From Armatimonadota bacterium (GTDB taxonomy: Bacteria; Armatimonadota; HRBIN16), in the NCBI GenBank assembly GCA_026003195.1, contig BPGU01000004.1:70317-134316 (forward strand): a stretch of DNA of 64,000 nucleotides, read 5' to 3'. Shown piece by piece: positions 1,763 through 50,645 of this stretch (the stretch's first letter is position 1; every line of letters begins with the position of its first letter). Both the position numbers and the translations under genes were made by a program. The notes under the pieces were generated by a model, which worked only from the letters and a program-made list of their open reading frames with translations, had not been told where the DNA came from and did not search any database.

Positions 1763-1943
1763 AAAGTCGTTTCCAGCGTTTTCAGCCCTCCAGCGAATAC
1801 AGGAAGATCAGCCAGGCACTCTGTCCCTTCGCCAAAGCTTCACACCACAGGCAAGCACAGAATGGTTGAGCGTTCTCGTGGCTAGAGCCCCCATAGGATA
1901 TTGTCGGCATCCGGGGGAAACAGGCTCAGTGCGGCAGAGCAGG

Positions 1944-10753: not shown

Positions 10754-11053
10754 ATGAGCCAACCCTTGATGACCAGACGTCAGTTCCATCTCGCACTGAT
10801 GACATCTGTAGTAGCTCTGGCTGCGCCCGGCGGAGCGCAGGAACCCTCTACACACTCAGTCGACACCTTGCCGGCAGATGTCGTTAACTCCTGGCTTCCC
10901 GCACCGATGCCTCCTGAGCAGGCGCAGAAGGTGGCGGAAGCGGTAAAATCCATGCAGCAAACGTTAGCAAACCTGCGCGCTTACCCTCTACCCGAAGGCT
11001 CCGAGCCTGCTTTCGTATTCCAACCCCGCCCCCTCAGAAAGGAGAAGCGATGA
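10754..11053 (+). CDS. Small twin-arginine (Tat) signal protein, translationally coupled to amidase
   Basis: 99 aa. Tat motif TRRQFHLAL followed by a hydrophobic h-region and AxA-like site. Its stop overlaps the amidase start (ATGA). Confidence 0.5.
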   Translation: MSQPLMTRRQFHLALMTSVVALAAPGGAQEPSTHSVDTLPADVVNSWLPAPMPPEQAQKVAEAVKSMQQTLANLRAYPLPEGSEPAFVFQPRPLRKEKR

Positions 11054-12450
11054 GCGACGACCTGCTGTTCCTCACCGTCACCGAACAGGCGAAGCTACTC
11101 CAGTCACGCAAAATCTCTTCGGTAGAGCTCACAGAAGCTTACCTGCAGGCTTTGCGCACGCGCGGTACCATCCTGCACGCCGTCGCCGAAATCGCCGAAG
11201 AGGTTGCCATGCAGCAGGCACGACAGGCAGACAGAGAAATCGCTTCAGGTAAGTATCGCGGGGTACTGCATGGTATCCCCTACGGCGCCAAAGACCTCTT
11301 CGCCACGAAAGGCATCCCGACACGCTGGGGGTCGCCCGCTCACCGTGACCAGGTTTTGGACTATGACGCCACCGTCATCGAGCGTCTGCAAAAAGCGGGC
11401 GCAGTACTGGTTGCCAAGCTGGCGATGATCGAGCTGGCGGGCGCAGGGGGTTACGAATTTGCTCATGCCTCGGTGACGGGAGCCTGCCGGAACCCCTGGG
11501 ACACAACACGCTGGGCAGGTGGTTCCTCCAGCGGTTCGGGCGCGGCGGTCGCGGCGGGGGCGGTGAGCTTTGCACTGGGTACAGAAACATGGGGTTCCAT
11601 CACCGTGCCTGCCGCTTTCTGCGGGGTAACCGGACTGCGCCCAACCTACGGACGGGTGAGCCGCTATGGAGCGATGGCGTTATCCTGGACAATGGATAAG
11701 ATAGGCCCGATGGCTCGCAGTGCGGAAGACTGCGCCCACATCTTGCAGGCGATTGCTGGGCACGACCCGCGTGACCCATCGAGCGTGGACATGCCTTTCC
11801 GCTATCGCTTCTCCACGTGGCGCAACCACCGTTTCCGCATCGGCTTGCTGCCGGTGGACTTCGCGAAGAACAACGCACCTGATGCCGAACGGTGCTTTAT
11901 GGCGGCTCTGGAGGTGTTCAGGAAGCGTCGAGCGGAGTTTGTGGAAGTGAACCTGCCCGACCTGCCCTATAACGAGGCGGCGGAGGTTATTATCGTGGCG
12001 GAAGGCTCCTCTGCATTTGAGAACCTCATCCGCAGTGGTAAGGTGAACGAGCTGGCAGACCAGTCGCAGGTAACAGGCTTGCTCTCGGGGCTGGCACTCT
12101 CGGCGGTGGACTACCTGCGGGCGATGCGTGTTCGCGCCGAAGCCTCTCGTGCGGTAGCGGAGGTGTTTGAACAGTGTGACGTGCTGATGGCGCCAACCCT
12201 GCTGCAGAGTGCGCCGCCGGTCGATCGCAGTCTGAACGAGACATGGGTGAACATGGGTGGCAACGGCGGTTTCGCTAACCTGACAGGCTTGCCGTCGGTC
12301 TCCGTGCCGATGGGTTTCACTGCCAGCGGGTTGCCTCTGGGGCTGGAGATGATCGGCGCACCGTACGAGGAAGCGAAAATGCTGGCTCTGGCGCAGGTTT
12401 TCCAGCAGGAGACGGACTGGCATCGGAGGCGTCCACGTGCTCTGGGCTAA
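11050..12450 (+). CDS. Amidase (amidase-signature family)
   Basis: 466 aa. Amidase-signature Gly/Ser-rich motif GGSSSGSGAAVAAGAVSFALGTETWGSI with the catalytic Ser-cisSer-Lys context. No signal peptide of its own. Confidence 0.85.
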   Translation: MSDDLLFLTVTEQAKLLQSRKISSVELTEAYLQALRTRGTILHAVAEIAEEVAMQQARQADREIASGKYRGVLHGIPYGAKDLFATKGIPTRWGSPAHRDQVLDYDATVIERLQKAGAVLVAKLAMIELAGAGGYEFAHASVTGACRNPWDTTRWAGGSSSGSGAAVAAGAVSFALGTETWGSITVPAAFCGVTGLRPTYGRVSRYGAMALSWTMDKIGPMARSAEDCAHILQAIAGHDPRDPSSVDMPFRYRFSTWRNHRFRIGLLPVDFAKNNAPDAERCFMAALEVFRKRRAEFVEVNLPDLPYNEAAEVIIVAEGSSAFENLIRSGKVNELADQSQVTGLLSGLALSAVDYLRAMRVRAEASRAVAEVFEQCDVLMAPTLLQSAPPVDRSLNETWVNMGGNGGFANLTGLPSVSVPMGFTASGLPLGLEMIGAPYEEAKMLALAQVFQQETDWHRRRPRALG

Positions 12451-23737: not shown

Positions 23738-23912
23738 ATTGCGAGGGGGATTTATCCCTGAAGCAGTTCCTTTCGAGGAAGTGGAGGATGTCTTCGCGGC
23801 TCGCGACGATACGTGAGCCAAGGTTCCCCCGAGGCTATAGCCCTGGTTTCCCGGTGTGGTTTCAGAGCTGTGACTGTAACTTGCAAACCAAATCCATGAT
23901 GGGTACACGTGC

Positions 23913-25898
23913 ATGGCAACAACTATCTGGCAAAGAATACGTGCAGAAGCAGAAACGCAGGAACAAGCGGTTGCCGTACAGCGTGGCGTGACTCTCCGTG
24001 CTGTAGTGGTCGGTGTCATTCTTGCACCGCTGATTGCGTGGTTCAACATCTCTATCGAAGCCATTCGCTATGCGGGGCAGCCGACCACTATCTCGTTGTT
24101 TCCTCACATCCTGTTCGTGCTTTTGTGCTTGATTGCGGTGAACGCGGTAGTCGGGCGCATCGTACCCCGGTGGCGTTTCTCCCCCGCAGAGTTGATGACC
24201 ATCTACTTCTTTACTCTGATGACGGCGGTGATGGCGTCGCATGACCTGATTGAGGTCATCACGCCTATTCTGACCTATCCCTTCAAGTACGCCAACCCTG
24301 CCAACCGCTGGGACAGCGATGTCATACCCTATCTGCCCAAATGGCTGTTTATCAGTGACCCCGATGCGGTGGACAAGTACTATATCGGCAACGCCAACTT
24401 CTGGAACGGACGTGACCTGCGCATCTGGACACCACCCCTGCTCATCTGGACGGGCTTCTTTACGGTGCTGGCGTTCGGCATGTTCTGCTTGAATGTGCTG
24501 CTACGCAAGCAGTGGACCGACCGTGAACGCCTCTCTTACCCCCTGGTGCAGCTGCCGCTGGAGCTGGTACAGCCGCGCGTGCCTGTGTTCCAGAATCGGC
24601 TGTTCTGGATTGCGTTCGCCATCGCTGCGATAAACGACATCTGGTTCGGCTTAAATCGGTTGTTTCCCACCATCCCGCAGCCCTACGTGCGCTGGCAGAC
24701 GCTGGAGCAGTATATCACCACGCCGCCGTGGAACGCGATTGGCTGGCTACCGCTGGCGTTCTTTCCCTGGATTGTGGGCATCGGGGTGCTGCTGCCTACC
24801 GACTTGCTCTTCTCGTGCTGGTTCTTCTTCTGGATGTGGAAGCTGCAACCCATCATCGCCGCCTACTACGGCTGGAACCAGATACCCGGCTTTCCCTACG
24901 TGAATGAGCAATCGTTCGGTGCGTATATGGGCATTGCACTCTTCACACTTTACACCGCAAGGAAGGCACTGGCGCAGGGGTTCTCGGCGATATGGAGAGG
25001 CTCGGATGGCAGCGACAAAGGTGAGGCATTACCCTACCGCTGGGCGGCGCTGGGCTTCTTAGCGAGCCTGGCAGCGATTTACCTTTTCTTCCTTTCTACC
25101 GGTATGAGCGGCTGGGTGATCGCGCTGTCTCTACTGATCTATCTGGCGATCTCTTTAGCGGTGACCCGTATGCGCGCGGAACTGGGCCCTCCCGCCCATG
25201 ACCTGCACGACTCGGGTCCGCAGAGGCTCATCCCCCTGCTGTTTGGCGTGGAGAACCTGAAGCGGCAGGACCTGGTGATGTTCGCACCGATTCAGGGCTT
25301 CAACCGCGCTTACCGTGCCCATCCCATGCCCACGCACATCGAAGGGTTGCGTGCAGCGGAGCGAACACGTTCCTCGATGCGGGCGATGTTCTGGGTGCTG
25401 GTGTTCGCAGTGTTCTGGGGAACGCTCACCGGCTTCTTTGTGAACGTGCACCTGCACTATCAGTGGGGCGCGGCATCGAAGGCGGACACCCCCTACGTCA
25501 GTACCATCTTCGGCAGGGAGCCGTACGACCGGATTACCTCCTTGCTGTCGGGATCGGTTTCCTCCCTACAGAAGCGTAACGTGATATGGGCGATGATGGT
25601 GGGCTTCGGCGTCACTGCGGTGCTGAGCATCTTCCGTATGAACATTGCCAACTTCCCCTTGCATCCGGTGGGCTACGCTATTTCCAGCAGCTGGAGCCTC
25701 AGCGTGTTATGGTTTTCCCTGCTGGTGGCGTGGGTGTGCAAGGTGACCATCATGAAGATAGGTGGGTTGCGCAGCTACCAGCGGGCGTTGCCGTTCTTCC
25801 TGGGGCTGGTGCTGGGCGAGTGCACGATAGGTAGCCTGTGGATGCTGGTGAGCATCTTCACCGGCACGAAAACATTTATTGTCTGGCCCTACGGATAA
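23913..25898 (+). CDS. Large polytopic integral membrane protein, function unknown
   Basis: 661 aa with at least 12 predicted TM helices. Immediately upstream of a Gfo/Idh/MocA oxidoreductase, with an 11–14 nt gap. Confidence 0.55.
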   Translation: MATTIWQRIRAEAETQEQAVAVQRGVTLRAVVVGVILAPLIAWFNISIEAIRYAGQPTTISLFPHILFVLLCLIAVNAVVGRIVPRWRFSPAELMTIYFFTLMTAVMASHDLIEVITPILTYPFKYANPANRWDSDVIPYLPKWLFISDPDAVDKYYIGNANFWNGRDLRIWTPPLLIWTGFFTVLAFGMFCLNVLLRKQWTDRERLSYPLVQLPLELVQPRVPVFQNRLFWIAFAIAAINDIWFGLNRLFPTIPQPYVRWQTLEQYITTPPWNAIGWLPLAFFPWIVGIGVLLPTDLLFSCWFFFWMWKLQPIIAAYYGWNQIPGFPYVNEQSFGAYMGIALFTLYTARKALAQGFSAIWRGSDGSDKGEALPYRWAALGFLASLAAIYLFFLSTGMSGWVIALSLLIYLAISLAVTRMRAELGPPAHDLHDSGPQRLIPLLFGVENLKRQDLVMFAPIQGFNRAYRAHPMPTHIEGLRAAERTRSSMRAMFWVLVFAVFWGTLTGFFVNVHLHYQWGAASKADTPYVSTIFGREPYDRITSLLSGSVSSLQKRNVIWAMMVGFGVTAVLSIFRMNIANFPLHPVGYAISSSWSLSVLWFSLLVAWVCKVTIMKIGGLRSYQRALPFFLGLVLGECTIGSLWMLVSIFTGTKTFIVWPYG

Positions 25899-25912: not shown

Positions 25913-27160
25913 ATGTCTCGCGTGAGCGCAAACGACAAGATTCTCATCGGTTTCATCGGCACGGGCGGGCGAGGACAACATCTGATGCGCATTGCGCTGG
26001 GCAACCCCGATGTGCAAATCGCCGCCGTGTGCGACGTAATGGAACAGCGCCTGGCGCAGGCGGTACAAATCACGGGCGGCAAAGCCACGCCGTACAAGGA
26101 CTTCCGTCGTCTGCTGGAGCGTAAGGACCTGGACGCGGTGTTCGTTACCACGCCCGACCACTGGCATTGTATCATGACCATTGCGGCGTGTGAGGCGGGC
26201 AAAGATGTCTACGTGGAGAAGCCGCTGAGTCATAACGTTGCGGAGGGGCGTGCGGCGGTCAATGCCGCCAAACGGTTCCGACGCATTGTACAGCATGGCA
26301 CCCAACAACGGAGCGGGCAGCATTACGCCGAGGCGAGGGAACTGATACGCTCCGGTACGCTGGGCAAGATCACGCACGTGCGCATCTGGAATGTGTGGAA
26401 CGAGTCGCCTGAAGGTATCGGCAATCCTCCCGATACCGAGGCTCCTCCCGATATCGACTACGACCTGTGGCTGGGTCCCGCGCCCAAACGCCCGTTCAAC
26501 CCCAACCGGTGTTATGCACCCGGCTACTGGTTCCAGTGGGACTACTCTGGCGGGCACATGCTGGCGTGGGCGATACACCACATCGACACGGTGCACTGGG
26601 TGCTGGGCGTCACCGCGCCACGACTGGCGGTATCCGCAGGTGGAAAGTACGCGCTGAAGGATAACCGCACCACTCCTGATACACAGGATGCCCTGCTGGA
26701 CTACGGCGACTTCATCGTGCAGGCATCCATCTACCACGCCAGTGCCCGCCCTGTGGAGGGAAGCTGGTACGGCATCGCTTTCTACGGAACGAACGGCACC
26801 ATGCGTCTGCTGCGTGAGGGGTTTGAGATTTATCCCGAAGGCGACCGCACCCGCCCTGTGCAGCGCGGTGGTACCCCACAGGAAGAACCGCACGTGCGTA
26901 ACTTTCTGGACTGTGTGAAGAGCCGAAAGGAACCGGTGGCGCCCGTCGAATGGGGGCACTGGTCCACCAACGCCATGCATCTAGCAAATATTGCCCTTCG
27001 CACAAGACGGGCGGTACACTGGGATGCCAGGCAGGAAAAGGTCATCGGTGACGAGGAGGCAAACCGCTACCTGTGCCGCACCTATCGCAAGCCGTGGGGG
27101 CAATACGTGCTGCGCTATCTATCGCCAGCGCATCAGAAGTACTACAGGGAGACGACGTAG
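25913..27160 (+). CDS. Gfo/Idh/MocA family oxidoreductase
   Basis: Start at MSRVSANDKILIGFIGTGGRGQ with RBS TAAGGAGGG. Rossmann N-terminal domain plus GFO_IDH_MocA C-terminal domain. Confidence 0.85.
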   Translation: MSRVSANDKILIGFIGTGGRGQHLMRIALGNPDVQIAAVCDVMEQRLAQAVQITGGKATPYKDFRRLLERKDLDAVFVTTPDHWHCIMTIAACEAGKDVYVEKPLSHNVAEGRAAVNAAKRFRRIVQHGTQQRSGQHYAEARELIRSGTLGKITHVRIWNVWNESPEGIGNPPDTEAPPDIDYDLWLGPAPKRPFNPNRCYAPGYWFQWDYSGGHMLAWAIHHIDTVHWVLGVTAPRLAVSAGGKYALKDNRTTPDTQDALLDYGDFIVQASIYHASARPVEGSWYGIAFYGTNGTMRLLREGFEIYPEGDRTRPVQRGGTPQEEPHVRNFLDCVKSRKEPVAPVEWGHWSTNAMHLANIALRTRRAVHWDARQEKVIGDEEANRYLCRTYRKPWGQYVLRYLSPAHQKYYRETT

Positions 27161-27954
27161 AAACCCGCCGCCGCTCCCGCCAGCGTGCAAAGCAGGTTCA
27201 CCATGTCGTTGCTCATCCATCGCCAGCCGGCGACCTGTGTAGCGGCGAGATCGCAATGTTCCCTTCTCTCTACAACCTCGCCGCATCGTTCGCAACGATA
27301 CCTTGCCTGCAGGGTGGCGCCCAGCACGCTGTCCAGCAAATTGCCGACCATCCCACCCAGCGCAACGGCAAACATCTGCCAGAGAGGCACAGGATGTACC
27401 AGCCATGCCGTTGCCGCTACAACCACGCTACCTACACACCCCGCCAGCGTACCCCACAGAGTCACCCCACCCGAATCGCCTGCTCGCAGGGTACGACCTG
27501 TGAGGATATGACGCGGCGGGGCAGGAGAGAGTGCGCCGATTTCACTGCTCCACGTATCCGCATTGGCGGCAGCGTAAGCTCCGGCAAAAGCCAGCCACCA
27601 GTGTGCCTCACCAGTCAGAGCATACAGCGCCATGCACAGCGAGGCGACTCCACCGTTGGCAAGCACCTGTGCGGCATCGCGCCGCGCTCCCCGCGCGGTC
27701 AGGCTCTCCATACGACGCTTGCGCTCCGCACGCCAGCGGCTTAGCACACTGGAGGTGAGGAAAAAGGTAAGCAGCACGCTTGCCCCCTGCCAGCCACCAG
27801 CCGCCAGAGTCACCCATCCCACCGCCAGAGCGGCAATGGCTCCGGTGACGGATAGCCAGCGCAGACGGATAGCGGAGAGCACCACCGGCAAAACGAGCAC
27901 TGCAGAGAGAAAAGGGTCCACTACCCACACCGCTTCTCTACCGACGGATGCCAA
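27142..27954 (-). CDS. DUF92 (TMEM19-like) family membrane protein
   Basis: 270 aa, multi-TM, with a C-terminal CxxC-containing segment (CERCGEVVERREHC). Confidence 0.65.
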   Translation of the reverse strand: MASVGREAVWVVDPFLSAVLVLPVVLSAIRLRWLSVTGAIAALAVGWVTLAAGGWQGASVLLTFFLTSSVLSRWRAERKRRMESLTARGARRDAAQVLANGGVASLCMALYALTGEAHWWLAFAGAYAAANADTWSSEIGALSPAPPRHILTGRTLRAGDSGGVTLWGTLAGCVGSVVVAATAWLVHPVPLWQMFAVALGGMVGNLLDSVLGATLQARYRCERCGEVVERREHCDLAATQVAGWRWMSNDMVNLLCTLAGAAAGFYVVSL

Positions 27955-28723
27955 CGAGCGTCTTCAGGTATTTGGGGTCAGTGATGCGGTCTATTGCCAC
28001 GCGACCACGGCTGCTAGCAGCGTGGATAAAGTAGCCGTTGCCGATGTAGATTCCTGTGTGCGCAATGGGCTGTTTGCTGGAGCGGAAATACAGCCTGTCG
28101 CCCGGCTGCAGCATCGACAGGTCGGGGATCGGTGTGCCAACCTGTGCTTGATGTCTGCCCAGACGCGGTAACCGGATACCGTTGAGCGCGAACACCTTTT
28201 GCACGAAGCCCGAGCAGTCCAGCCCGTTGTAGGAGGTACCTCCCCAGCGGTAAGGGATGCCCAGAAAGCGCAGGGCGGTTTGCACGATGCGCTCACCCAG
28301 TACACCCGTTGCTGTGGGGTTAGCAGGTAGTACTTCGTAGTCCAGAAGACGCACATGCTGGCGCGGAATCCAGCCCACGCTGCCGTCCGCCATCAACACG
28401 CCGTACCACGCCCCGGCTTCATGGGTCACCGCGAGATACGTCAGGGTTTCACAGCGAGCATACAACCTGCTGCGTGTGCTCCGCATCGCGTAGATGGGAG
28501 CAGGGCTGACGGTCACGCCTAACCGCCCAATGGCTTGAGGGCGTTTGGATTCTGTTCTGCCGGGCGGAGGGCTACTGCGCGATGGTGTGGAGCGGGGTGG
28601 CTCCGGCGGGCGGATGGGCAGTTCGATGGAAAGGGTGGTATCGGCGCGAGCGCCCCCTGCTACCCATAGAACGAGCGTCGCCCCCAGAAAGGCAAGGTAC
28701 AACCAGCCTCTTCCCCACCCCAT
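27938..28723 (-). CDS. NlpC/P60 family (C40) cell-wall peptidase, secreted
   Basis: Catalytic Cys (LDCSGFVQKVF) and His (HTGIYIGNGYFIHA) motifs. N-terminal signal sequence, with the start trimmed to MGWGRGWLYLAFL. SH3-like region before the catalytic domain. Confidence 0.8.
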   Translation of the reverse strand: MGWGRGWLYLAFLGATLVLWVAGGARADTTLSIELPIRPPEPPRSTPSRSSPPPGRTESKRPQAIGRLGVTVSPAPIYAMRSTRSRLYARCETLTYLAVTHEAGAWYGVLMADGSVGWIPRQHVRLLDYEVLPANPTATGVLGERIVQTALRFLGIPYRWGGTSYNGLDCSGFVQKVFALNGIRLPRLGRHQAQVGTPIPDLSMLQPGDRLYFRSSKQPIAHTGIYIGNGYFIHAASSRGRVAIDRITDPKYLKTLVGIRR

Positions 28724-28813
28724 TTCCCTCAGGGAGGGGTTCGGAAGACAGGTATGATTCTTGAACCACACGACGGAGCGTGCCCCCCTCCGGAGATTGC
28801 ACCTGAAAGACTG

Positions 28814-29476
28814 TTACTGCACCAGTCTCAGCCAGTCGCTAAAGATAAAGTACATCCGGTCAAACAGCAGCGCCATACGTGCCATAATGGTTGTTCCAAA
28901 AATCGCGCCGAACGCCACCATCATCACCCAGCGTCCGAACTGCGCCGAGTTACGGATCGCTTTGCTCTTCTGCTCAAAGGAGAAGAAGAAGTAGCTCATG
29001 ACGGTGACGAGCACTACCATGAAGATAAGATTGTTCAAGCTCTTCGCAAAATCGAACGAACCGTTCTCCGTCACAACATACAGCGGTCGGAACGAATTCG
29101 ACAGCTGTGGCAGGTAAGTGTTGGAAAAAATCTGGAAAATCTGCCCTGCCGAGAAGCCCATCAGGAAGCCGATGGGCAGACGGCTGAGCCAGTTGTATTT
29201 TCGGCTGTGGATGAAATAGAACAGTAGTCCGAACATAAACACGAACGTCCAGTACCACTCGCCGTTCTTGAACACCGGCTGGTACAGGAACGGGTCGAGA
29301 ATATTTTTGACCAGCGCCACGATAGAAAAACCTGCAGCCAAGCCGATGAAGATGTGCTCAAAAAAGCGATAGACCACATTTTCACGGTAGATCAGGGTCA
29401 TCAGTCCGATGGTACAAAGGGCGCCGATGTACACACCCGGGCGCGCAACAAAGTCCTGCCACACCTGTTCGATCAT
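28814..29476 (-). CDS. Hypothetical polytopic membrane protein (operon gene 6 of 6)
   Basis: 220 aa with about six TM helices. 4-nt overlap with the upstream gene. Confidence 0.55.
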   Translation of the reverse strand: MIEQVWQDFVARPGVYIGALCTIGLMTLIYRENVVYRFFEHIFIGLAAGFSIVALVKNILDPFLYQPVFKNGEWYWTFVFMFGLLFYFIHSRKYNWLSRLPIGFLMGFSAGQIFQIFSNTYLPQLSNSFRPLYVVTENGSFDFAKSLNNLIFMVVLVTVMSYFFFSFEQKSKAIRNSAQFGRWVMMVAFGAIFGTTIMARMALLFDRMYFIFSDWLRLVQ

Positions 29477-30315
29477 CGCGACCTCCGTGCTCGCGTTGCG
29501 AAATAGCCGATGTTACCTATCACAATCAGCAACATGATCAACACGTGCGCCAGCGAGATGCTGCCCATGCCCACCGTCGCTAACCCCGGTTTTTTGAGCA
29601 ATCTCTCGTACTCTGCGGCGCCTCGCATTCCCTCCATCGTTCCCACAATCTGACCGGAAGCCAGATAGGGATATGTCTCCGGTACCATGACGGACGTAGG
29701 ACAAAACCCGAACTTCAGTTTGGGATTGGCACCCACAACCAGCCCAATCCAATCCGCATAGATACCAGAGGCAGCAATCTCCACAATCGCATCCACGTTC
29801 TGGATGTTCTTAATTCCCTGCATCATCGGCATATCCTTGGTTGGCTTGCCCTGGTAGTCTTTGTCAAAAGTGCCCGGGATGTCGCGCACCATCGATTTCA
29901 TCACCACGCCTACCTGCGGGCGAAAGCCCCAGTGAACCCAGTTCTTGCCGTACTCGTAACCGTATTCAGCGGCAAGTCGCTTAGCGATGTCCAGCGATAG
30001 CTGGCTACCCTGCACATCGAAGGAGAACACTGCCACCCGCAGTCCTCGCTGCATGGCATGGCGCAAGATGGCGACGGTCTGCGGCATATTTTCCGCGCGC
30101 GTGCCTCCACTCCATGTGGCGCTGACGATCACAAAACCGCCGGGCGGTATGGACTCGATAGCGTCGTATAACCTCTGTGTCGAGGGCATAGTGACCGTCG
30201 GCAGGCTTATAGGCAGAAACAGCGGCGCAATCACCACTATCAGCAACAGCAGATACAGTATCCGACGGTCAATCGCTTGCAGCTTGTCCCAAAAGTTCGC
30301 CGATGCCCCTGTCAT
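29473..30315 (-). CDS. Hypothetical bitopic membrane protein with large extramembrane domain (operon gene 5 of 6)
   Basis: 280 aa. N-terminal and C-terminal TM helices flank a soluble domain of about 200 aa. Confidence 0.55.
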   Translation of the reverse strand: MTGASANFWDKLQAIDRRILYLLLLIVVIAPLFLPISLPTVTMPSTQRLYDAIESIPPGGFVIVSATWSGGTRAENMPQTVAILRHAMQRGLRVAVFSFDVQGSQLSLDIAKRLAAEYGYEYGKNWVHWGFRPQVGVVMKSMVRDIPGTFDKDYQGKPTKDMPMMQGIKNIQNVDAIVEIAASGIYADWIGLVVGANPKLKFGFCPTSVMVPETYPYLASGQIVGTMEGMRGAAEYERLLKKPGLATVGMGSISLAHVLIMLLIVIGNIGYFATRARRSR

Positions 30316-30318
30316 CGT

Positions 30319-31128
30319 CTAAATCTCCTTCTCGAAGTAAGCCCCTCGTTCCAGGCTAAGCCAGATACGTAGTGAAATGGCAAGTCCGCCTACACCCAAT
30401 CCGAAAGCAATGGCACGCAGCGCCGCCGCATTCAGCACCGTTAACAGCCACTCCTTCATCACTTCCAGACGCAGCGAAGCCAGCATACTGTCACGGGGGA
30501 TCCAGGCGGTCAGAGCCAATCCCACCGGCACCTGCGCAAGCATTACCAGAAACGCCGTTGCCATCAGGATGGTGGCTTCCACCGAGCGGATACGAAAGGC
30601 GCGGTATGCCGCTGAGACAATGTAGAAAGCGATAAGCGAGAACATGGTAGCGTCCATGTTAATCAACATGCCCTCAAACAGCACACTGAACACCTGCTTG
30701 GCGGTTGGGTTGTTGCCGTATCGCTCCATCAAACCAAACACCACCATCGCCGTCATGGCTGCCAGCAAGGCGAGGCTGTTGTACCACCCGCTACGCAAGC
30801 GCGTGATATTACGACCATGCACTCGCAAAAGGCTCAGGATGCCCAGGGTCAACGTCATCCCTGCCAGCAAGCTGCCCAGCTTGCTGGCGGGCACAAGATA
30901 GTCGGTCAGGAAGTTCTTACCCTCTTTGTCTATCGGCAGGAAGAACTCTGTAGCGTAAAAGAGCCCTGCGAGAAAAGTGACTGTAGCGATAAGCGGCTTG
31001 CGTGCGCGCGAGGGCAGGTTCATCAGCAAGATGATGATCAGGATGCTCAACACAACCGCCCCTGCCACATAATACGGCAGCACCTCTGGCGGCTTGGGAC
31101 CGAAAAAGCGAACTATCGGCTCTAGCAC
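30319..31128 (-). CDS. Hypothetical polytopic membrane protein (operon gene 4 of 6)
   Basis: 269 aa with at least 7 TM helices. Confidence 0.55.
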   Translation of the reverse strand: MLEPIVRFFGPKPPEVLPYYVAGAVVLSILIIILLMNLPSRARKPLIATVTFLAGLFYATEFFLPIDKEGKNFLTDYLVPASKLGSLLAGMTLTLGILSLLRVHGRNITRLRSGWYNSLALLAAMTAMVVFGLMERYGNNPTAKQVFSVLFEGMLINMDATMFSLIAFYIVSAAYRAFRIRSVEATILMATAFLVMLAQVPVGLALTAWIPRDSMLASLRLEVMKEWLLTVLNAAALRAIAFGLGVGGLAISLRIWLSLERGAYFEKEI

Positions 31129-31145
31129 CGTCCGTTACCCCCCTG

Positions 31146-31949
31146 TTAACGAATGCGAAACAGGTCCACGAACCATTGGCCCGCATCCGCCAGCATCGGC
31201 ACTTTCAGTGCGGCAAGCGTTGCAGCCATCGAACCCACCACGCACAGCGCGGTAATCAGCAGCTTGCCAAAATCCTGACCGACCAGGCTACCCAGCATCG
31301 TCGGATTGCGCGAGATATATGCGCTGGCGGCGTAGTACTCATCGCCGATGATGGTGTAGTCACACGCGGCGATGAAGAAGGGAATCTGGGTCGTCTGCGT
31401 CGTACCGGCAACCTGTATCGCACCGGTCATATTGCCTGTCTCGGCGAAGATAAGCGACTCCGCGAAGAACTCCCCGAACATAAAGGAGCTGGCTACTTTC
31501 TCGCGCTGTATCAGTCCTGCCACGCCGGATGCGAACGCGAACTGGCGGTCGGAAAGGAAGCGAATAGAATCGGGGTCAAACCGTTCGGGATGTCCCTCTG
31601 CCTGATAGGCGTCACGGATGACCTCTTCCGCCACGGTATACACCGTGGGGTCTGCTACAGGCATCAGGATGCGGTTGCCGAACCTGGCGGTGGAACGGGC
31701 GATATAGCTGAAGATACTCAATGCCTGCAGGGCGATGATGCCAAACCCGCCGATACCAGGTACCATGAGCACAGGACGTCCCATTTCGGTAGCGCGTCCT
31801 ATCGCTTCATCGATGGCGTTCAAACCGGGAATACGTCGGATGAACATCTCCTTGCCCCGCTGAGCCGATAGAATGCGCCAGATAATTATCGTCGCCGTCA
31901 ACACTTCCATAATCAGCACGGGCCAGATTTTCTCAAAGGCGTGTTGCAT
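31146..31949 (-). CDS. Hypothetical membrane protein (operon gene 3 of 6)
   Basis: 267 aa with 4–5 hydrophobic segments. Overlaps its upstream neighbour. Confidence 0.5.
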   Translation of the reverse strand: MQHAFEKIWPVLIMEVLTATIIIWRILSAQRGKEMFIRRIPGLNAIDEAIGRATEMGRPVLMVPGIGGFGIIALQALSIFSYIARSTARFGNRILMPVADPTVYTVAEEVIRDAYQAEGHPERFDPDSIRFLSDRQFAFASGVAGLIQREKVASSFMFGEFFAESLIFAETGNMTGAIQVAGTTQTTQIPFFIAACDYTIIGDEYYAASAYISRNPTMLGSLVGQDFGKLLITALCVVGSMAATLAALKVPMLADAGQWFVDLFRIR

Positions 31950-32262
31950 GATCAGATGGCTCCTGCTCCTTTTCGTGTTCTAACTGTTCGATGCGCTCGA
32001 TCAGCCTCTCTACGTTCTCCCGCTTCTCCAGCAATCGGCTGTAGCGATGCACGTTGTCTATTCCCACAAAAGGCGCGAGAAACGGCGTCAGCACAATCAG
32101 CGACTGGCTGGCGACGAAAGAAAGGGGCTTGTTCAGCTCCAGAAACAGCACTGCCGGAGCTGCCATCCCGCGACGCACAATCCCCTGTGCGATACGCTCC
32201 AGAATAGCGTCGCGCTCTTCGTCGCTCAGTTCGTCTTCTTGCCAGCGGTCGATTCTCTCCAA
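31933..32262 (-). CDS. Small membrane protein with acidic coiled-coil termini (operon gene 2 of 6)
   Basis: 109 aa. Central hydrophobic hairpin (AAPAVLFLE...SLIVLTPFLAPFV) flanked by charged helical segments. True start uncertain, since it overlaps the upstream gene by 37 nt. Confidence 0.4.
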   Translation of the reverse strand: MERIDRWQEDELSDEERDAILERIAQGIVRRGMAAPAVLFLELNKPLSFVASQSLIVLTPFLAPFVGIDNVHRYSRLLEKRENVERLIERIEQLEHEKEQEPSDHATRL

Positions 32263-32693
32263 AAGGCAATCGCCTCCAGCACCTGGTCACGGTTGCCCGC
32301 GAAGCGCAGGTACACCCCGCGAAAGGGTTCCAGACGCGAACGGGGCGGCAAAGGGCTGAGCTTCACCCCGTCAGGAGTAACGGTCACATATTTCACGCGC
32401 TCCCACGCGATGTCAAACCCTGCCCCCAGATAGCGCACCCTCGCCCCTTGTTCGTCCACCGCATAGTGTACTGGCAGCCAGTAATCGCGTGTGGCCAGCC
32501 ACAGCAACAGCAGTGCCAGCAACCCCATTCCCGCACTGCGAAAAGCCACCCCTACCAGAGCAGACGCCAGCAGCATGATGGCTCCCGCCAACCATGCCTT
32601 CTGCGGCTGTTCACGTAACAGATGCACTCTCCATCGCAGGGTGTACTGGTTCGCCTGTTCCTCGTCGCTCATGCGCGGAGCACCGCTGTGCAT
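32226..32693 (-). CDS. Membrane-anchored protein with PH-like (YdbS/bPH_2-like) soluble domain (operon gene 1 of 6)
   Basis: 155 aa. Two adjacent TM helices followed by a beta-rich domain of about 75 aa. Confidence 0.45.
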   Translation of the reverse strand: MHSGAPRMSDEEQANQYTLRWRVHLLREQPQKAWLAGAIMLLASALVGVAFRSAGMGLLALLLLWLATRDYWLPVHYAVDEQGARVRYLGAGFDIAWERVKYVTVTPDGVKLSPLPPRSRLEPFRGVYLRFAGNRDQVLEAIAFWRESTAGKKTN

Positions 32694-32771
32694 AGCCCTG
32701 CGTCATTATAAGGAGAAACACCCCCCATGTCAAGGGTAACTATTCGGCATATCTGGTGGGTATCCCTTCCC

Positions 32772-32824: not shown

Positions 32825-33481
32825 CTACGCACGTCGTCGGCGCAGAGCCAGCAGTCCCACCACTCCGCTACCCAGCACCAGCAGGCTGGCGGGTTCGGGT
32901 ACGGGAACCGTCTCCAGATAGAAGTTGGCTACTGGATTGCCGCCAAACCAGTAAGGTCCGCCGTTGTTGATGGTGAACAGGTCGTGGCTGGTACCCACTG
33001 TCGGCGGGTTGTAGATAAGCAGCCCAGCATCCGCCGCACTGAACGAGAAGCCAATCCACAGGTCCGCCGGTGCGGTGAGAGGAGCCGGTAACGTGATGGT
33101 GTAAATCCACCCGCCGGAGCCGTTCAGCGTGCCCAGCGGATACGAAGCGATGAGCGAAGCCGGCAAGTTAAAGTCGCCGTTGTTTTGATAGATGTAGAGG
33201 GTGACATCAGGTGCGCTGGTCGGCGCGTAATAGGCGAACGACACCTGCCCAATCGGCAGGCTGGTGGTGCGATGCACATCGTCCGCCACGATAGCCCCTG
33301 CTCCACCGGGATAATAAAAGCCGGTGGAGTTGGTGGTGTTGCTGTAGTCGGGAGCCATCTGGGGGGTTAAGCTGCCACGGAACAGGTCGGCTGGCACAGG
33401 CGTTGCCGTAACCCGAATCTGCGCGTTAGCTACTGCGACGGCACCCAGCAATAAAGCGGTGACCAGCAAAGTGCGAAACAT
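32825..33481 (-). CDS. PEP-CTERM sorting-domain secreted protein
   Basis: Signal peptide MFRTLLVTALLLGAVAVANAQ. C-terminal VPEPASLLVLGSGVVGLLALRRRRA (PEP motif, TM helix, Arg cluster) is the exosortase recognition tag. Confidence 0.8.
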   Translation of the reverse strand: MFRTLLVTALLLGAVAVANAQIRVTATPVPADLFRGSLTPQMAPDYSNTTNSTGFYYPGGAGAIVADDVHRTTSLPIGQVSFAYYAPTSAPDVTLYIYQNNGDFNLPASLIASYPLGTLNGSGGWIYTITLPAPLTAPADLWIGFSFSAADAGLLIYNPPTVGTSHDLFTINNGGPYWFGGNPVANFYLETVPVPEPASLLVLGSGVVGLLALRRRRA

Positions 33482-33610: not shown

Positions 33611-34750
33611 TTACGGGGCGCGCCAGGAATACATACCTTCCCTGGGTGGGAAAGCCAGCCTGTCGAAAGCGCGAGCAGGCGGTTTGTTCAACAGCTGCCA
33701 GTCGGCGAAATCCAGCAGAGCCTGCCAGTCCGCCAGCGAATGCTCGTGTCCACCTTCGCGGAACCAGATACCGATGCGCTGTTCCACCCCCAGGAAGCGG
33801 TACACCTCTTTCGCAGCGAGGTAGGTCACCTGTGTGCCTTCAGGGTTTGCCCACAGGTCCGCCAGCGCTTCGGTGCTGAGCTGCGCCCGCGGAGCCACCA
33901 GCGCCTTCACGATATGCTGGTCAAACGGCAACCTCTCCACCTTGCCGATGAACTGAGCAAAGCGCGGATGGAACCAGTAAGGAATGTTGCGCAGGATGTC
34001 GGCAATGGTTTCGCTGCCCTGTGCCTGGTAACGGTAGCACCCTGCACCGCCACAGCCTGAGTTGTTCGGGGCGGTGAGGGCGATGCGTTCATCGGTGGCA
34101 CCTGCCAGCAGGGCAGTCTTGCCACCCCGAGAGTGTCCGGTAACCACAATGCGCTTCGCATGGATAAAGGGTTGAGTCAGCAAAAAGTCTATCACGCGGT
34201 GATAGCCCCATGCCCATGCTGCCAGCCTGCCACCTTCGTCATGGGGGTATGCCTCATAAACACCCTTGCGCTCTGCGCTGTCGGGAGCGATTTGCGTGCG
34301 GTCAAAGAAGGCAAGCACGTAATGGCGCTGGAGCACTTCCCGGACGATTTCCCCCGTTGGCTCGCCCCACCCGAGGTCGCCGTCCACGATAACGGGCATC
34401 TTCCCTCGCCAGCGTGGACGAAAGAGGAGCAGGCGCGTGCTCAGGGGGACAGGAGATTCGATGTGCAGGCGGTATTCGGTGCGCACCGCCTTCAGGTCAG
34501 ACAGATCTGTCTCTGCCACAGTCTCTGCACGCACCCCACGCGGTGGGGGAGGCAGCTCGCCGTATTCGTAGTGCAGCACCAGCTTGAGCCAGTGTTCACG
34601 CAGCGATTTCCACTCCCGTGGCGAGGTCACACGCTTCCCATCAGGGCGCAAAAACGGATCGGGAAGTTCCCTCACCGGTGGCAAATCCTCCGCAGCGGGA
34701 AAATCAGCATCGGTCGTGAGATGCTCAAACTGATCGTGTCGGACATTCAT
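33611..34750 (-). CDS. Alpha/beta hydrolase, glucuronoyl-esterase-like (CE15-like)
   Basis: 379 aa. Nucleophile motif GHSRGGK resembles the CE15 GCSRxG. No obvious signal peptide. Confidence 0.5.
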   Translation of the reverse strand: MNVRHDQFEHLTTDADFPAAEDLPPVRELPDPFLRPDGKRVTSPREWKSLREHWLKLVLHYEYGELPPPPRGVRAETVAETDLSDLKAVRTEYRLHIESPVPLSTRLLLFRPRWRGKMPVIVDGDLGWGEPTGEIVREVLQRHYVLAFFDRTQIAPDSAERKGVYEAYPHDEGGRLAAWAWGYHRVIDFLLTQPFIHAKRIVVTGHSRGGKTALLAGATDERIALTAPNNSGCGGAGCYRYQAQGSETIADILRNIPYWFHPRFAQFIGKVERLPFDQHIVKALVAPRAQLSTEALADLWANPEGTQVTYLAAKEVYRFLGVEQRIGIWFREGGHEHSLADWQALLDFADWQLLNKPPARAFDRLAFPPREGMYSWRAP

Positions 34751-38459: not shown

Positions 38460-38536
38460 TGGCAGGGGTGGAGGGATTCGAACCCCCGACCGCCGGTTTT
38501 GGAGACCGGTGCTCTACCAGGCTGAGCTACACCCCT
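38460..38536 (-). tRNA. tRNA-Trp (anticodon CCA)
   Basis: AGGGGTGTAGCTCAGCCTGGTAGAGCACCGGTCTCCAAAACCGGCGGTCGGGGGTTCGAATCCCTCCACCCCTGCCA folds as a cloverleaf with anticodon loop CUCCAAA and an encoded CCA. Confidence 0.9.
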
Positions 38537-40047: not shown

Positions 40048-40122
40048 TGGAGCCCCCGACGGGACTCGGACCCGTGACCTCGTCTTTACCAAAGACGCGC
40101 TCTCCCTCTGAGCTACGGGGGC
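40048..40122 (-). tRNA. tRNA-Thr (anticodon GGT)
   Basis: GCCCCCGTAGCTCAGAGGGAGAGCGCGTCTTTGGTAAAGACGAGGTCACGGGTCCGAGTCCCGTCGGGGGCTCCA, anticodon loop UUGGUAA. Confidence 0.88.
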
Positions 40123-40174: not shown

Positions 40175-40261
40175 TGGTGGGGGGAGGAGGATTCGAACCC
40201 CCGAAGGCATTCCGCCGGCAGATTTACAGTCTGCTCCCTTTGGCCGCTCGGGCATCCCCCC
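40175..40261 (-). tRNA. tRNA-Tyr (anticodon GTA)
   Basis: GGGGGGATGCCCGAGCGGCCAAAGGGAGCAGACTGTAAATCTGCC...(long variable arm)...GGTTCGAATCCTCCTCCCCCCACCA. Class II tRNA with a GUA anticodon. Confidence 0.88.
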
Positions 40262-47404: not shown

Positions 47405-49738
47405 CTACTCGTCTCCCACCATACCGAAGTGGGCTACCAGCCAGCTGAAGTCCCACAGGCTGACCTCGCCGTCGCCGTCCAGGTCGGCATCGATGTCGTA
47501 GCCTTCTTCACCGGCGAATCTGCCAAACGCCGCCACCATCCTGCCGAAGTCCAACAGGGTGACCTCGTTATCGCCGTCCACGTCACCAATCAGCAGAGAC
47601 ACAGGCTTTGGTGACCACCCCCCAGAAATCTCCGAGACCAGCACAGTGTGCTTCAGAAAGGGACTGCCCCCGATGGTGAGACGGAGGCTGGCAGGGTCTC
47701 TATCGGCAGGGATGGGCAGGGTAAATGTGCCTGTCGCCAGGTCAGGCACATTGGTCACGTGCAGTGTACCCTCGTCCAGCACCTCAGCCGTCAACGCATC
47801 GCGCAGGGTGTAGCGCAGATGTTCGGGGAACAGCCCGCACCATCCGTTCAATACCACTGTGCCCGATACCCCGACCTTATCAGAGAAACCGCGCTGAATG
47901 ACCGAACCAACAACGACGTAGCGACCGCTGCGAGAGAAGGTCAGGTTGGAAGGGGCACTGCTACCGCGCCAGAGGGTAATCAACCGCGGATGAGGGTCGT
48001 CCCAACGATACAGTATGGTCTCTCGCCAGCTGGATTGACTGCCTCGTGTGGTCATAATGACCTTCGCATCAGGAGACACGCTGACCGAAGCACCTTGCGG
48101 GTCTGTCGGGTCGCGCGACAGGAGGAGGCTGGTGTAGCGCAACAAGTCGCCTGTCGGCAAATCGTACAGGGATACACGATAGATGTTATACACTGCGTCT
48201 ACCAGCACTGTTGCTAACCGTTGACCGTCCTGCACTACCCCGAACCATCGCACGCGAGGAAGTGTGTACAGGATGGCACCGTCCGCGACACGACGCACGG
48301 TCAACACGTCCTCTTGCGTGACCAGTATAGAACCGTCTGGTGTGATGTCGAAGCCGTACGCACTTTGCGCCAGCGTGGAAATGGTACCATCGGCGATACG
48401 GATACGGTGAACCTTGCCCGAGTCGTCCCACACAAAAAGGGCGGAACCGTCTTCGCTCAAACGCATCCTCAGAGGTTCATCGATATCGCTGAGCGGAAAC
48501 AGCGGTATGGTCAGCAAGGGAATGGCAGCACCACTTGCTGGTAGATGGAAAACGGCAATGCCGCCCTCATAACCGCTGTAGACAGCGTAAGTGCTTCCAT
48601 CCCCAGAGATAGCAGCCGCGAAGGGGCGACCTTCAGGCACGTCCACCTGGCGAACGAGGGAGCCGTCCGCACTGGCGTAAAAACGCACGCTCTGCTCATC
48701 CGCAACCGTGACTTGCTCCTCGCTGGAGAGGAAGCCGAGCATCATCGCTCCTTTCGAAGTACGCCACTCATCCAGCACGACGCCCGAGCAAACATCTACC
48801 ACACTTATCCGTGATGGAAAAGATACATAGAGCGTGGCGCCGTCGCCAGAGAAGGCTACTGTCCACACTTCATTTTCTGAGGACCAGGGATAGTTCTCAC
48901 CCGCTATCTGTGCGCCGTCCGTCAATCGCCACAAACGCCATGCACCTTGCTCGTAGTTCAGTCCATACCCACCTGCCAGATAGTTGCCGTCCGGGCTGAA
49001 GCGCAGCGTGGTGAACTCCCATGAGCCGACGTCCGTGAACGTGTACAGCAGCTGTGCATCCGCCACGCGGTAAACATTCACCTGCATGGGCATGGCGAAA
49101 GCGATCCGGTCTCCAGAAGGTGATGCTGCGAGCAAACCGAAGGCGTTCACGCGGAACCGCCGCACCACCTGCCCCCCCGGTAGCGCCCGCACGGTAACCT
49201 CCGTGCTATAGTTGTCCATATATCTTCCTTCAAACAGGTAGCGTCCGTTCGCAGAGAGGGTGACCGTGCTGCGGTAAAGAGGTAGTGTCAGGCTTAAACG
49301 TCGCTGTGGAGGGGTCAGTTCCCACAGCTCAGCGAACTGCTCCCACCTGGCGTATCGATAGACGAGGAGCCATCGTCCGTCCCGCGATGCCTGCAAAAGT
49401 CCGTTGGTCGGGAGGCGATAAACGGGGCGGAAAGAGGGCACATCGCGCAAGACGACTCCTTCAGCGGTATCCAGCGCGATCAGGCGGTTTCCCACGAACA
49501 CAGGTGCCCGCCCGATGAGAACACGCACCAGACGGCGTTCGGACAAACTGTATACGCCTGTTTCGGAAGACCACACGCTGCTAACAGCCATCCACCGGTT
49601 GTCGGGCGAAACCTCGACGTGCGAAGCGGCTGCAGGAGCCTCTTGCAGACGGATCATGCCGTTTTGAGCAAGCGCTGGTAACGCCAGGCACCCCAGAGCC
49701 ACCAAGCCCCACCAGAGGCGCATCAAAAGACACCTCAT
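47405..49738 (-). CDS. Secreted beta-propeller-repeat protein with C-terminal dockerin-like repeat pair
   Basis: 777 aa with signal peptide MRCLLMRLWWGLVALGCLALPALAQ. Many S(P)DG..L/WD40- or TolB-like blades (SPDNRWMAVSS, SPDGNYLAGG, SPDAKVIMTT, SRSGRYVVVG). C-terminus GDVDGDNEVTLLDFGRMVAAFG...DLDGDGEVSLWDFSWLVAHFG. Confidence 0.7.
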   Translation of the reverse strand: MRCLLMRLWWGLVALGCLALPALAQNGMIRLQEAPAAASHVEVSPDNRWMAVSSVWSSETGVYSLSERRLVRVLIGRAPVFVGNRLIALDTAEGVVLRDVPSFRPVYRLPTNGLLQASRDGRWLLVYRYARWEQFAELWELTPPQRRLSLTLPLYRSTVTLSANGRYLFEGRYMDNYSTEVTVRALPGGQVVRRFRVNAFGLLAASPSGDRIAFAMPMQVNVYRVADAQLLYTFTDVGSWEFTTLRFSPDGNYLAGGYGLNYEQGAWRLWRLTDGAQIAGENYPWSSENEVWTVAFSGDGATLYVSFPSRISVVDVCSGVVLDEWRTSKGAMMLGFLSSEEQVTVADEQSVRFYASADGSLVRQVDVPEGRPFAAAISGDGSTYAVYSGYEGGIAVFHLPASGAAIPLLTIPLFPLSDIDEPLRMRLSEDGSALFVWDDSGKVHRIRIADGTISTLAQSAYGFDITPDGSILVTQEDVLTVRRVADGAILYTLPRVRWFGVVQDGQRLATVLVDAVYNIYRVSLYDLPTGDLLRYTSLLLSRDPTDPQGASVSVSPDAKVIMTTRGSQSSWRETILYRWDDPHPRLITLWRGSSAPSNLTFSRSGRYVVVGSVIQRGFSDKVGVSGTVVLNGWCGLFPEHLRYTLRDALTAEVLDEGTLHVTNVPDLATGTFTLPIPADRDPASLRLTIGGSPFLKHTVLVSEISGGWSPKPVSLLIGDVDGDNEVTLLDFGRMVAAFGRFAGEEGYDIDADLDGDGEVSLWDFSWLVAHFGMVGDE

Positions 49739-49818
49739 CGGATTTCCCTCCTTTCCAGCAAACTATCCCAATTCTAACTCGCGTTTCCGAAAAAGTCAAA
49801 ACCCCGCAAGAATACCTG

Positions 49819-49847
49819 TTGCACTTTTTGGCACAGGCATTTATACT
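49819..49847 (+). promoter_or_regulatory. Sigma70-type promoter for second PEP-CTERM gene
   Basis: TTGCAC, 17 nt spacer, TATACT. RBS AGGAAAGGAGGG precedes the ATG. Confidence 0.5.
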
Positions 49848-49889
49848 GAAGGTGTACTTCATGCCGTGCCAGGAAAGGAGGGCAGTATC

Positions 49890-50645
49890 ATGAAGATTCG
49901 TCTGTTTCTGGCGGCAGTTGTGGTGATGGCGCTGGCGACCGTCGCGGCGCAAGCACAGCTGGCATGGTACGATTCGAAGGGCTTCGAGGCACCGACCTTC
50001 GTTCCTGGCGTCCTGAACGGACAGGACGGCTGGATCAGCGAGGGAGGCGGCACCTCCGGGGACACTGCACGAGTGGTTGTCTCCCCCGAACCAGTATTCG
50101 GTGGGCAGGCGGTACGCCTGGAAGTAGGGGACAGCCAGGGCGACTATTCGCTGATGGCGCGTGAAATCCCCGACCCGCTGGCTGCTGGCTGGAAGGTGGT
50201 CATCGTCACCTTCGATATCTACCGCATCGGACCCCAGCAAAAACAGAACCTGTGGTGGTACTGGTTCGATAACGGCGAGCCGACCTACGGCTTGCAGTGG
50301 GACCTGTCGAACGCCACCCATCCGTTTGGCTGGAACCCCGGCGCCACTTCCACTCCCACCATCTTTGACCAGTACGTTACGCTCCAGATGATGTGGGATT
50401 TCAACAAAGGAAAGGCGTACTCCTGGTACAACGGGGTGATGGTGGACAACGGTATCCCCATCAACGGGATCACCACGCTTACCGGCTGGGGCATCTTGCT
50501 GTCTCACGATGCCGCGTCGGGGTCGGGGGCGGATGTGGTTTGGATTGACAACTTCGCCATCCACGTCGTGCCCGAACCGGCGAGCGTCGCGGTGCTGGCG
50601 GGCGGAGTGCTTGCGCTGGTGGGCATCAAACGACGCCGCGCGTAG
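49890..50645 (+). CDS. PEP-CTERM sorting-domain secreted protein
   Basis: Signal peptide MKIRLFLAAVVVMALATVAAQAQ. C-terminal VVPEPASVAVLAGGVLALVGIKRRRA. Confidence 0.8.
   Translation: MKIRLFLAAVVVMALATVAAQAQLAWYDSKGFEAPTFVPGVLNGQDGWISEGGGTSGDTARVVVSPEPVFGGQAVRLEVGDSQGDYSLMAREIPDPLAAGWKVVIVTFDIYRIGPQQKQNLWWYWFDNGEPTYGLQWDLSNATHPFGWNPGATSTPTIFDQYVTLQMMWDFNKGKAYSWYNGVMVDNGIPINGITTLTGWGILLSHDAASGSGADVVWIDNFAIHVVPEPASVAVLAGGVLALVGIKRRRA

Follow-up and report, generated by a model that had tools for sequence, protein, structure and literature searches.

Four adjacent membrane-protein genes form an obligate core that, in many phyla, has been passed on and duplicated as a single unit. The case examined here lies in a window of 64,000 nt, meaning the whole stretch of DNA that was analyzed (positions 70,317 to 134,316 of contig BPGU01000004.1, assembly GCA_026003195.1, from an Armatimonadota bacterium), where the core is part of an operon of six minus-strand genes, here called g1 to g6. 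Sequence comparison makes it very probable that the products constitute a genuine new multi-subunit complex. What might this complex do? The reading we favor, tentatively and with slightly less than even confidence, is that the operon may encode the membrane-embedded part of an undescribed ATPase-associated envelope complex, in which a conserved cytoplasmic domain is coupled to variable periplasmic domains for transport or transduction. While the complex itself is well supported, its mechanism is something that we infer.

In the list of open reading frames (ORFs), the six genes are g1 (32226-32693; 155 aa, ATG start), g2 (31933-32262; 109 aa, TTG start), g3 (31146-31949; 267 aa), g4 (30319-31128; 269 aa, GTG start), g5 (29473-30315; 280 aa) and g6 (28814-29476; 220 aa). 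The successive junctions from g1 to g6 are a 37-nt overlap, a 17-nt overlap, a 17-nt gap, a 3-nt gap and a 4-nt overlap. These coordinates and junctions agree with the first-pass annotation of this DNA, made from the sequence alone, which described six consecutive minus-strand genes with overlaps of 4-37 nt or gaps of less than 20 nt.

Conservation of the four-gene core

The g3 product is a full-length member of the Pfam family DUF6754 (PF20539), aligning to profile positions 11-250 of 257 with E=9.6e-96 and 320.3 bits against a cut-off of 27. The same family is present in all 120 listed g3 homologues. The earlier description of six unassigned proteins is therefore incorrect for g3, although DUF6754 is itself a family without an assigned function. 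Full-text literature searches, with most subscription journals outside their reach, returned no paper on DUF6754 or PF20539. The family is large: clustering gives 2121 groups at the 50% identity level and over 7500 at 90%, and at least 575 g3 loci turned up when each species was represented by a single genome. The best 80 of these species-representative loci served as the genome set for the analysis of gene order; they come from Armatimonadota, WOR-3, Poribacteria, Zixibacteria, Eisenbacteria, Latescibacterota, Cloacimonadota, Stahlbacteria, Ignavibacteriales, relatives of Fermentibacterota, and others. Homologues of g5, together with the operon, also occur in Nitrospira (Nitrospirota).

Synteny was assessed by iterative hidden Markov model searches of all ORFs in the loci, counting those copies with enough flanking sequence. 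In the species-representative genomes, which span at least a dozen phyla, 71 g3 copies were testable; 69 of them have g4, g5 and g6 downstream in this order, and the other two are lone g3 copies. The same arrangement was found in every testable copy of the metagenome set (40/40). Of 57 g3 copies testable on the upstream side, 23 are immediately preceded by the pair g1-g2, and these are in essence the Armatimonadota clade. The universally conserved unit is thus g3-g4-g5-g6, with g1 and g2 as accessory genes, and no other conserved neighboring gene family surrounds the core in the best 80 loci. Co-occurrence of the genes in other genomes, which the first-pass annotation had proposed as a test, is thus present across phyla, with the core everywhere and g1-g2 mainly in Armatimonadota. 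The conserved g3-g6 order also supports its suggestion that the genes belong to a multi-subunit envelope machine rather than being scattered hypotheticals.

Duplication has likewise affected the block as a whole. Three tandem copies of g3-g6 are found at loci L054 (4288-14744), L064, L066 and L068, the hosts being a WOR-3 chromosome (CP070705, L054), a Zixibacteria genome, an Ignavibacteriales genome and an unclassified metagenome-assembled genome. When the paralogous copies within L066 and L068 are compared, the g3 cytoplasmic domain has changed the least (50-65% identity), and the most divergent parts are g5 (31-42%) and the FN3 extension (34%); the spread of divergence between subunits is smaller in L054 and L064. 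Such a pattern is consistent with a mechanism that is fixed on the cytoplasmic side and a periplasmic recognition that is specific to each copy. A small number of loci that carry the labels Actinomycetota, Bacillota or Bdellovibrionales show operons of the Armatimonadota type or of the type seen in the Fibrobacterota-Chlorobiota-Bacteroidota (FCB) group, and these may be mis-binned contigs.

Subunit architecture and topology

The topologies proposed for the subunits are derived from the positive-inside rule and from domain fusions, and positive-inside counts agree with the orientations assigned. In its AlphaFold2 model (predicted local distance difference test score, pLDDT, 79.6), g3 has transmembrane (TM) helices at residues 8-30 and 216-248 around a Rossmann-like alpha/beta domain, and inside this domain a further hydrophobic stretch, residues 61-79, forms the first of the buried helices. 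No subunit is more strongly conserved than g3, which has 67 positions at least 85% conserved across phyla, among them R38, R52, E55, E164, E170, Q179, Q188, C196, D197, E204, D226 and K229, and its cytoplasmic domain retains ~45-65% identity across phyla. Homologues outside Armatimonadota carry a signal peptide and an FN3-like domain N-terminal of the first TM helix, and some bear extensions of 450-720 aa, or PKD or He_PIG domains C-terminal of the last TM helix. A BamB-like PQQ_2 beta-propeller is present in 14 of 65 long forms, and a weak CBM6 module appears below threshold. From the signal peptide and these fused domains, together with a strongly basic stretch, RGKEMFIRRIPG, that follows the first TM helix, both termini of g3 are predicted to lie outside and the DUF6754 domain in the cytoplasm. 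The likely topology is N-out, TM helix, cytoplasmic Rossmann/SIS-like alpha/beta domain, TM helix, C-out. All structural matches are non-specific, and a Foldseek search of the g3 model against the PDB gave no match at E<=0.001.

The g5 model, built with 90 homologues, is of higher confidence (pLDDT 93.8) and shows a Rossmann-like alpha/beta domain of ~200 aa set between two TM helices, one at the N-terminus and a long one at the C-terminus. It reproduces the earlier description of two terminal TM helices enclosing a soluble domain of about this size. The protein is 100% identical to KatS3mg023_3139 of an Armatimonadota bacterium. Both of its termini are basic and conserved, with DRR before the first TM helix, on the cytoplasmic side, and RARRSR at the C-terminus; for this reason the alpha/beta domain is placed in the periplasm, giving a predicted topology of N-in, TM helix, periplasmic domain, TM helix, C-in. 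With the g3 domain cytoplasmic and the g5 domain periplasmic, the two bitopic subunits would face opposite sides of the membrane. Paralogy between them was considered, and the order of their secondary-structure elements is alike, but the similarity in hhalign is not significant (P about 0.05).

Family-averaged hydropathy gives g4 ~7 TM helices here, with 6 in the core outside Armatimonadota, and gives g6 ~6. Hence, of the three proteins previously described as polytopic with 5-7 TM helices, g4 and g6 fit the description, and g3, with two, does not. Conserved motifs are found in a cytoplasmic part of g4 (SAAYRAFR) and after the first TM helix of g6 (NPFYRxxEH). No similarity between g4 and g6 was detected with hhalign, and no fusion between subunits was found among 506 collected proteins. 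The remaining two genes encode smaller proteins. In g1, a TM hairpin at about residues 33-72 precedes a beta-rich domain, in keeping with the first-pass annotation; the PH-like (pleckstrin homology) character that it assigned to this domain has weak support from sub-threshold bPH_6 matches for 6 of 34 homologues (best E=0.0016), the window protein itself having no Pfam match. The domain is possibly a bacterial PH domain. In g2, one hydrophobic stretch is flanked by charged helical segments.

Putative cytoplasmic partners and competing explanations

In other phyla, two further genes accompany the core. At a Nitrospira locus (L083), the order is a g2 homologue (116 aa), an ATPase (611 aa), a soluble protein of 376 aa, and then g3-g4-g5-g6. 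The ATPase is a GlmL/MutL-family ASKHA protein (PF13941, E=8e-129; NCBIfam GlmL, 233 bits). System-linked ATPases as a group match PF13941 with about 418-431 bits (E about 1e-125 to 1e-129) and keep the ASKHA phosphate-1, phosphate-2 and adenosine motifs. Because they score only 223-233 bits on NCBIfam GlmL, below the equivalog cut-off of 475, and because their neighbors are the DUF6754 system and not glutamate mutase genes, they appear to be a separate subfamily. Literature searches for PF13941, and for GlmL together with ASKHA, returned no relevant paper, and those combining GlmL with "membrane" returned irrelevant matches only.

The 376-aa protein (5772-6902 of L083) contains a barrel-sandwich-hybrid (BSH) domain of the RnfC_N/NqrA_N/biotin-lipoyl-like kind, matching RnfC_N with E=7e-8 (32.9 bits, cut-off 25.6; in one homologue) and NQRA_N with E=6e-4. 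It also has an invariant SGATQIRAG motif that resembles the (S/T)GA(T/S) flavinylation motif of NqrC/RnfG; the upstream Asp is absent, and the protein has no signal peptide. A reciprocal metagenome scan from this BSH protein returned 80 loci, biased to Nitrospira-like sequences, the remoter of which (51-57% identity) mostly share the arrangement. The g2 and ATPase genes lie directly upstream of the BSH gene in 46 of 49 loci with enough upstream sequence, and g3 lies within 6 kb downstream in 43 of 52. The number of genes can rise to eight, as in L157 and L162, where g1 stands in front, and in the Eisenbacteria locus L075 (g1-g2-ATPase-BSH-g3 to g6). Linkage also persists where the order has changed: in L069 and L031 the ATPase and BSH genes follow g6, and g1 again heads the L069 operon. 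Searches with hhalign found no similarity of the BSH protein or the ATPase to g3 or g5, and profile searches of PDB sequences with either protein gave nothing significant. At L083, the operon is preceded (1-3420) by genes for CTP synthase, KdsA-like, KdsD-like (SIS+CBS), CDP-alcohol phosphatidyltransferase and PlsY proteins, and a Memo-like gene lies downstream (10747-11991). These flanks may provide an envelope-lipid context, or they may be coincidental.

How might such a complex work? The g3-g6 products would come together in a single inner-membrane complex whose membrane body would be g4 and g6. The cytoplasmic domain of g3 would be the invariant coupling or ligand-binding site, and its SIS-like fold hints at a phosphorylated ligand. 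Tethering of cytoplasmic partners would fall to g2 and, in this organism, also to g1; g2 is the candidate membrane adaptor for the ATPase because its gene nearly always directly precedes the ATPase gene and because its cytoplasmic arms are charged. In genomes that have it, the ASKHA ATPase would drive a conformational cycle, which would pass via g4/g6 through the membrane to the fast-evolving periplasmic parts, namely g5 and the g3 extensions. The outcome would be either movement of a substrate across the membrane or action on a periplasmic or cell-wall partner. The parts of this proposal differ in strength. That DUF6754 systems are ATPase-coupled in general is an even call. A role in transport or translocation, as opposed to scaffolding or regulating periplasmic processes, is on the doubtful side. 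It is possible, if somewhat improbable as a joint claim, that the system represents a new class of envelope machine, with two opposed TM-alpha/beta-TM subunits, two 6-TM subunits and a GlmL-type actin-fold ATPase that energizes or controls them via a small adaptor, and that it performs a housekeeping task, in transport or in envelope assembly, in Armatimonadota, Nitrospirota and many FCB-group and candidate phyla for which model Proteobacteria and Firmicutes use other machinery.

Several observations weigh against the ATPase-associated envelope complex. No homologue of the ATPase or BSH protein is encoded anywhere in the 64-kb window, and both genes occur within 8 kb in only 1 of ~32 Armatimonadota-type loci; the complex may therefore work without them here. 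The first-pass statement that no motor signature is recognizable consequently stands for the window and fails for the system, which has an ASKHA ATPase in other phyla. No conserved mid-membrane charged residue or known transporter motif was found in g4 or g6. Around residues ~160-200, g3 combines its most conserved stretch with the lowest model confidence (pLDDT 49-62); the true conformation may differ from the model, and the region may be an interface or partly membrane-embedded, folding only against its partners or the membrane. Finally, riboswitches, which could have given a clue to a ligand, were absent from the window and from 15 loci.

Is the operon a known system in disguise? Pfam and NCBIfam searches of the six proteins and their neighbors returned only DUF6754, NlpC/P60, DUF92 and PEP-CTERM, with no family for g1, g2, g4, g5 or g6, and Pfam scans of 60 individual g4 and 58 individual g6 homologues gave scattered noise only. 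Profile searches of PDB sequences with g3, g4, g5 and g6 gave nothing significant, and PADLOC gave no match to anti-phage defense at E<=1. Accordingly, as the first-pass annotation had it, none of the six genes could be confidently assigned to a known system from Pfam, NCBIfam, PADLOC or PDB sequences. For MotA/ExbB/TolQ, there is neither a Pfam or NCBIfam match nor a conserved mid-membrane carboxylate in g4/g6.

The resemblance to Pil, reactivase, Nqr/Rnf and Mre systems appears to be one of logic only. In the PilM-PilN-PilO and GspL-GspM platforms, an actin-fold ATPase-like protein is docked on small bitopic membrane proteins; similarly, the DUF6754 system has an ASKHA-fold cytoplasmic protein encoded beside the small membrane-anchored g2, plus bitopic proteins with periplasmic domains. 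However, there is no sequence or Pfam relation to these platforms, no secretin, pilin or hexameric ATPase gene lies nearby, and the linked ATPase, unlike PilM and FtsA, falls in the GlmL/hydantoinase branch. GlmL/MutL, EutA and the diol-dehydratase reactivases are ASKHA proteins that remodel Rossmann-type cofactor-binding subunits. The linked ATPase shares PF13941 with the GlmL-type reactivases, and Rossmann-like domains are found in the two proteins likely to be its partners, g3 and the BSH protein; the ATPase differs in having an extra C-terminal domain of ~120 aa and membrane proteins as partners, and DUF6754 loci have no B12-enzyme genes nearby and no cobalamin riboswitch.

One alternative, which we consider unlikely, is a scaffold for envelope biogenesis or cell-wall remodelling that positions or regulates periplasmic enzymes, such as the NlpC/P60 protein encoded after g6, from the cytoplasm. 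Actin-fold proteins and small bitopic adaptors organize the membrane proteins of the elongasome and divisome in this manner, and the linked ATPase has the actin (ASKHA) fold. The MreB-MreC-MreD-RodZ elongasome core is similar in combining an actin-fold protein with bitopic and small polytopic proteins, and a cell-wall hydrolase is encoded locally in the window; there is, however, no homology, and the linkage to peptidoglycan is not conserved. The NlpC/P60 gene follows g6 without an intervening terminator here and overlaps it by 4 nt in L001 and L002, the closest relatives of the window, but it is not adjacent to g6 in the other 162 fetched loci. The FN3, PKD and BamB-like domains of g3 homologues would suit a protein- or polymer-binding scaffold, the Nitrospira operon adjoins the KdsA, KdsD, PlsY and CDP-alcohol phosphatidyltransferase genes, and conservation is at a housekeeping level; yet no peptidoglycan or outer-membrane gene is among the conserved neighbors, and GlmL-family proteins are not known as cytoskeletal. 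Still less probable is a carbohydrate-uptake device following the logic of polysaccharide-utilization loci, in which g5 and the g3 extensions would capture a sugar, g4/g6 would conduct it, and the SIS-like g3 domain with the ASKHA (sugar-kinase-fold) protein would trap it as a phosphosugar. Tandem paralogous modules whose periplasmic parts diverge fastest (in L066 and L068) would fit such a device, as would the PKD and weak CBM6 modules on g3 and the weak hints of SIS-like and substrate-binding-protein-like folds. Nevertheless, the structural matches are all non-specific and the CBM6 match is below threshold, GlmL-family proteins are not known kinases, and the system is also present in the autotroph Nitrospira, with no glycoside hydrolase conserved as a neighbor.

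A distant analogue or relative of the Nqr/Rnf-type ion-translocating complexes is very improbable. The subunits can be mapped loosely, with the BSH protein as NqrA/RnfC, the 6-TM pair as NqrD-E/RnfA-E, the subunit with TM helices and a periplasmic domain as NqrC/RnfG and that with TM helices and a cytoplasmic Rossmann-like domain as NqrF. Consistent with this mapping are the RnfC_N and NQRA_N matches of the BSH N-terminal domain, the invariant SGAT motif of the BSH protein, two ~6-TM subunits, perhaps in opposite orientations (a weak indication), and bitopic subunits with domains on either side of the membrane. But g3-g6 match no Nqr or Rnf subunit in Pfam or NCBIfam, cofactor motifs are lacking (no Cys/His cluster for iron-sulfur centers or flavin is conserved in g4, g5 or g6), there is no counterpart of the large NqrB/RnfD subunit, the BSH domain is a common module, and the ASKHA ATPase has no place in those complexes. 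It is just as hard to credit that the genes encode a known type of transporter (ABC-2, ECF, TRAP or Mrp) diverged beyond recognition, or are merely adjacent and unrelated. The presence of two permease-like proteins of 220-270 aa would fit a transporter, as would sub-threshold TMD0_ABC and DUF3394 matches in a minority of g4 homologues. Against it, the six proteins have no ABC or ECF match at E<=1, no family is consistent in the 58-60 homologues each of g4 and g6, no profile matches a PDB chain, no Walker-type or ABC ATPase is a conserved neighbor, and the only sign of Mrp or complex-I-like proteins is one sub-threshold PhaG_MnhG match in 1 of 58 g6 homologues. Unrelated neighbors are excluded because the g3-g6 order is kept in 69 of 71 copies across phyla.

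What would follow if the envelope complex is real? The conservation of g3 is at a level usual for core cellular machinery, even though none of the subunits has a characterized homologue, and the phyla in which the system is concentrated have been little studied (Armatimonadota, Nitrospirota, WOR-3, Poribacteria, Zixibacteria, Cloacimonadota and others). Its role, once worked out, could show by what means these lineages carry out an envelope or transport function, and would give GlmL-type ASKHA ATPases their first function outside B12-enzyme operons. Among the six proteins, the one family membership that holds is that of g3 in DUF6754; its obligate g4-g5-g6 partners lie outside every Pfam and NCBIfam family. 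With an anatomy defined down to a four-gene core, two accessory membrane genes, two cytoplasmic partners, topology and invariant residues, the system is directly testable in cultured Armatimonadota or Nitrospira.

Transcription and surroundings of the operon

Upstream of g1 on the minus strand is a sigma-70 promoter (32705..32733) that matches the consensus at 12/12 positions (TTGACA-17 nt-TATAAT). It is the sole 12/12 match in the 7.5 kb scanned, where by our own estimate the chance expectation of a perfect match is far below one. The promoter ends ~11 nt ahead of the g1 ATG, so the 5' leader should be very short. The arrangement at 32693-32733 implies either a near-leaderless mRNA or a true g1 start at the second Met (residue 8). 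The scan for promoters and terminators around the operon detected no terminator 3' of g6. After a gap of 42 nt comes a gene on the same strand for an NlpC/P60 peptidoglycan endopeptidase with an SH3b-like region (27938-28771), which a gene for a DUF92/TMEM19-family membrane protein (27142-27954, minus strand) overlaps by 17 nt. Since no terminator follows g6, these two genes probably share the g1-g6 transcript, making eight genes with DUF92 last. Across loci, the NlpC/P60 gene is a lineage-specific passenger, and DUF92 is not conserved with the system. Base composition at the window is unremarkable.

On the other side, the first-pass annotation placed a PEP-CTERM gene with its own promoter and terminator immediately upstream, and this is indeed the case: the gene (32825-33481, minus strand) matches PF07589, has its own 10/12 sigma-70 promoter and is followed by a terminator with a 13-bp stem (32807-32779, minus strand). 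A link between the operon and PEP-CTERM/exosortase systems was considered and rejected, a PEP-CTERM-like ORF being present in only 1 of 80 genome loci and 2 of 80 metagenome loci; the adjacency is coincidental. Another ORF with a PEP-CTERM-like tail, VPEPASVAVLAGGVLALVGIKRRRA, lies at 49668-50642 (plus strand). The tail was recognized by a regular expression only, with no Pfam match at E<=0.001, and the gene call is uncertain, as the ORF overlaps a longer one on the opposite strand. Just upstream of the PEP-CTERM gene, at 33611-34750 (minus strand), is a gene for a glucuronyl-esterase-like protein (GCE_fung, E=4.5e-45).

Farther out, at 23880-25895 (plus strand) and ~1.2 kb past the DUF92 gene, lies the gene for a polytopic protein of 672 aa that contains DUF6785 (E=4e-161) and DUF6784. 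L001 and L002 encode a DUF6785/6784 protein with 29% identity to it, the gene lying 360 nt upstream of g1, and the other 162 loci yielded no such protein. The sole Rfam matches in the window are a bacterial large signal recognition particle RNA (172.6 bits; 5632-5896, minus strand) and three minus-strand tRNA genes (38463-38536, 40051-40122 and 40178-40261). A 785-aa protein encoded at 47408-49762 (minus strand) combines WD40-like beta-propeller repeats with a C-terminal type I dockerin (E=1.2e-5), which is unusual for an Armatimonadota genome.

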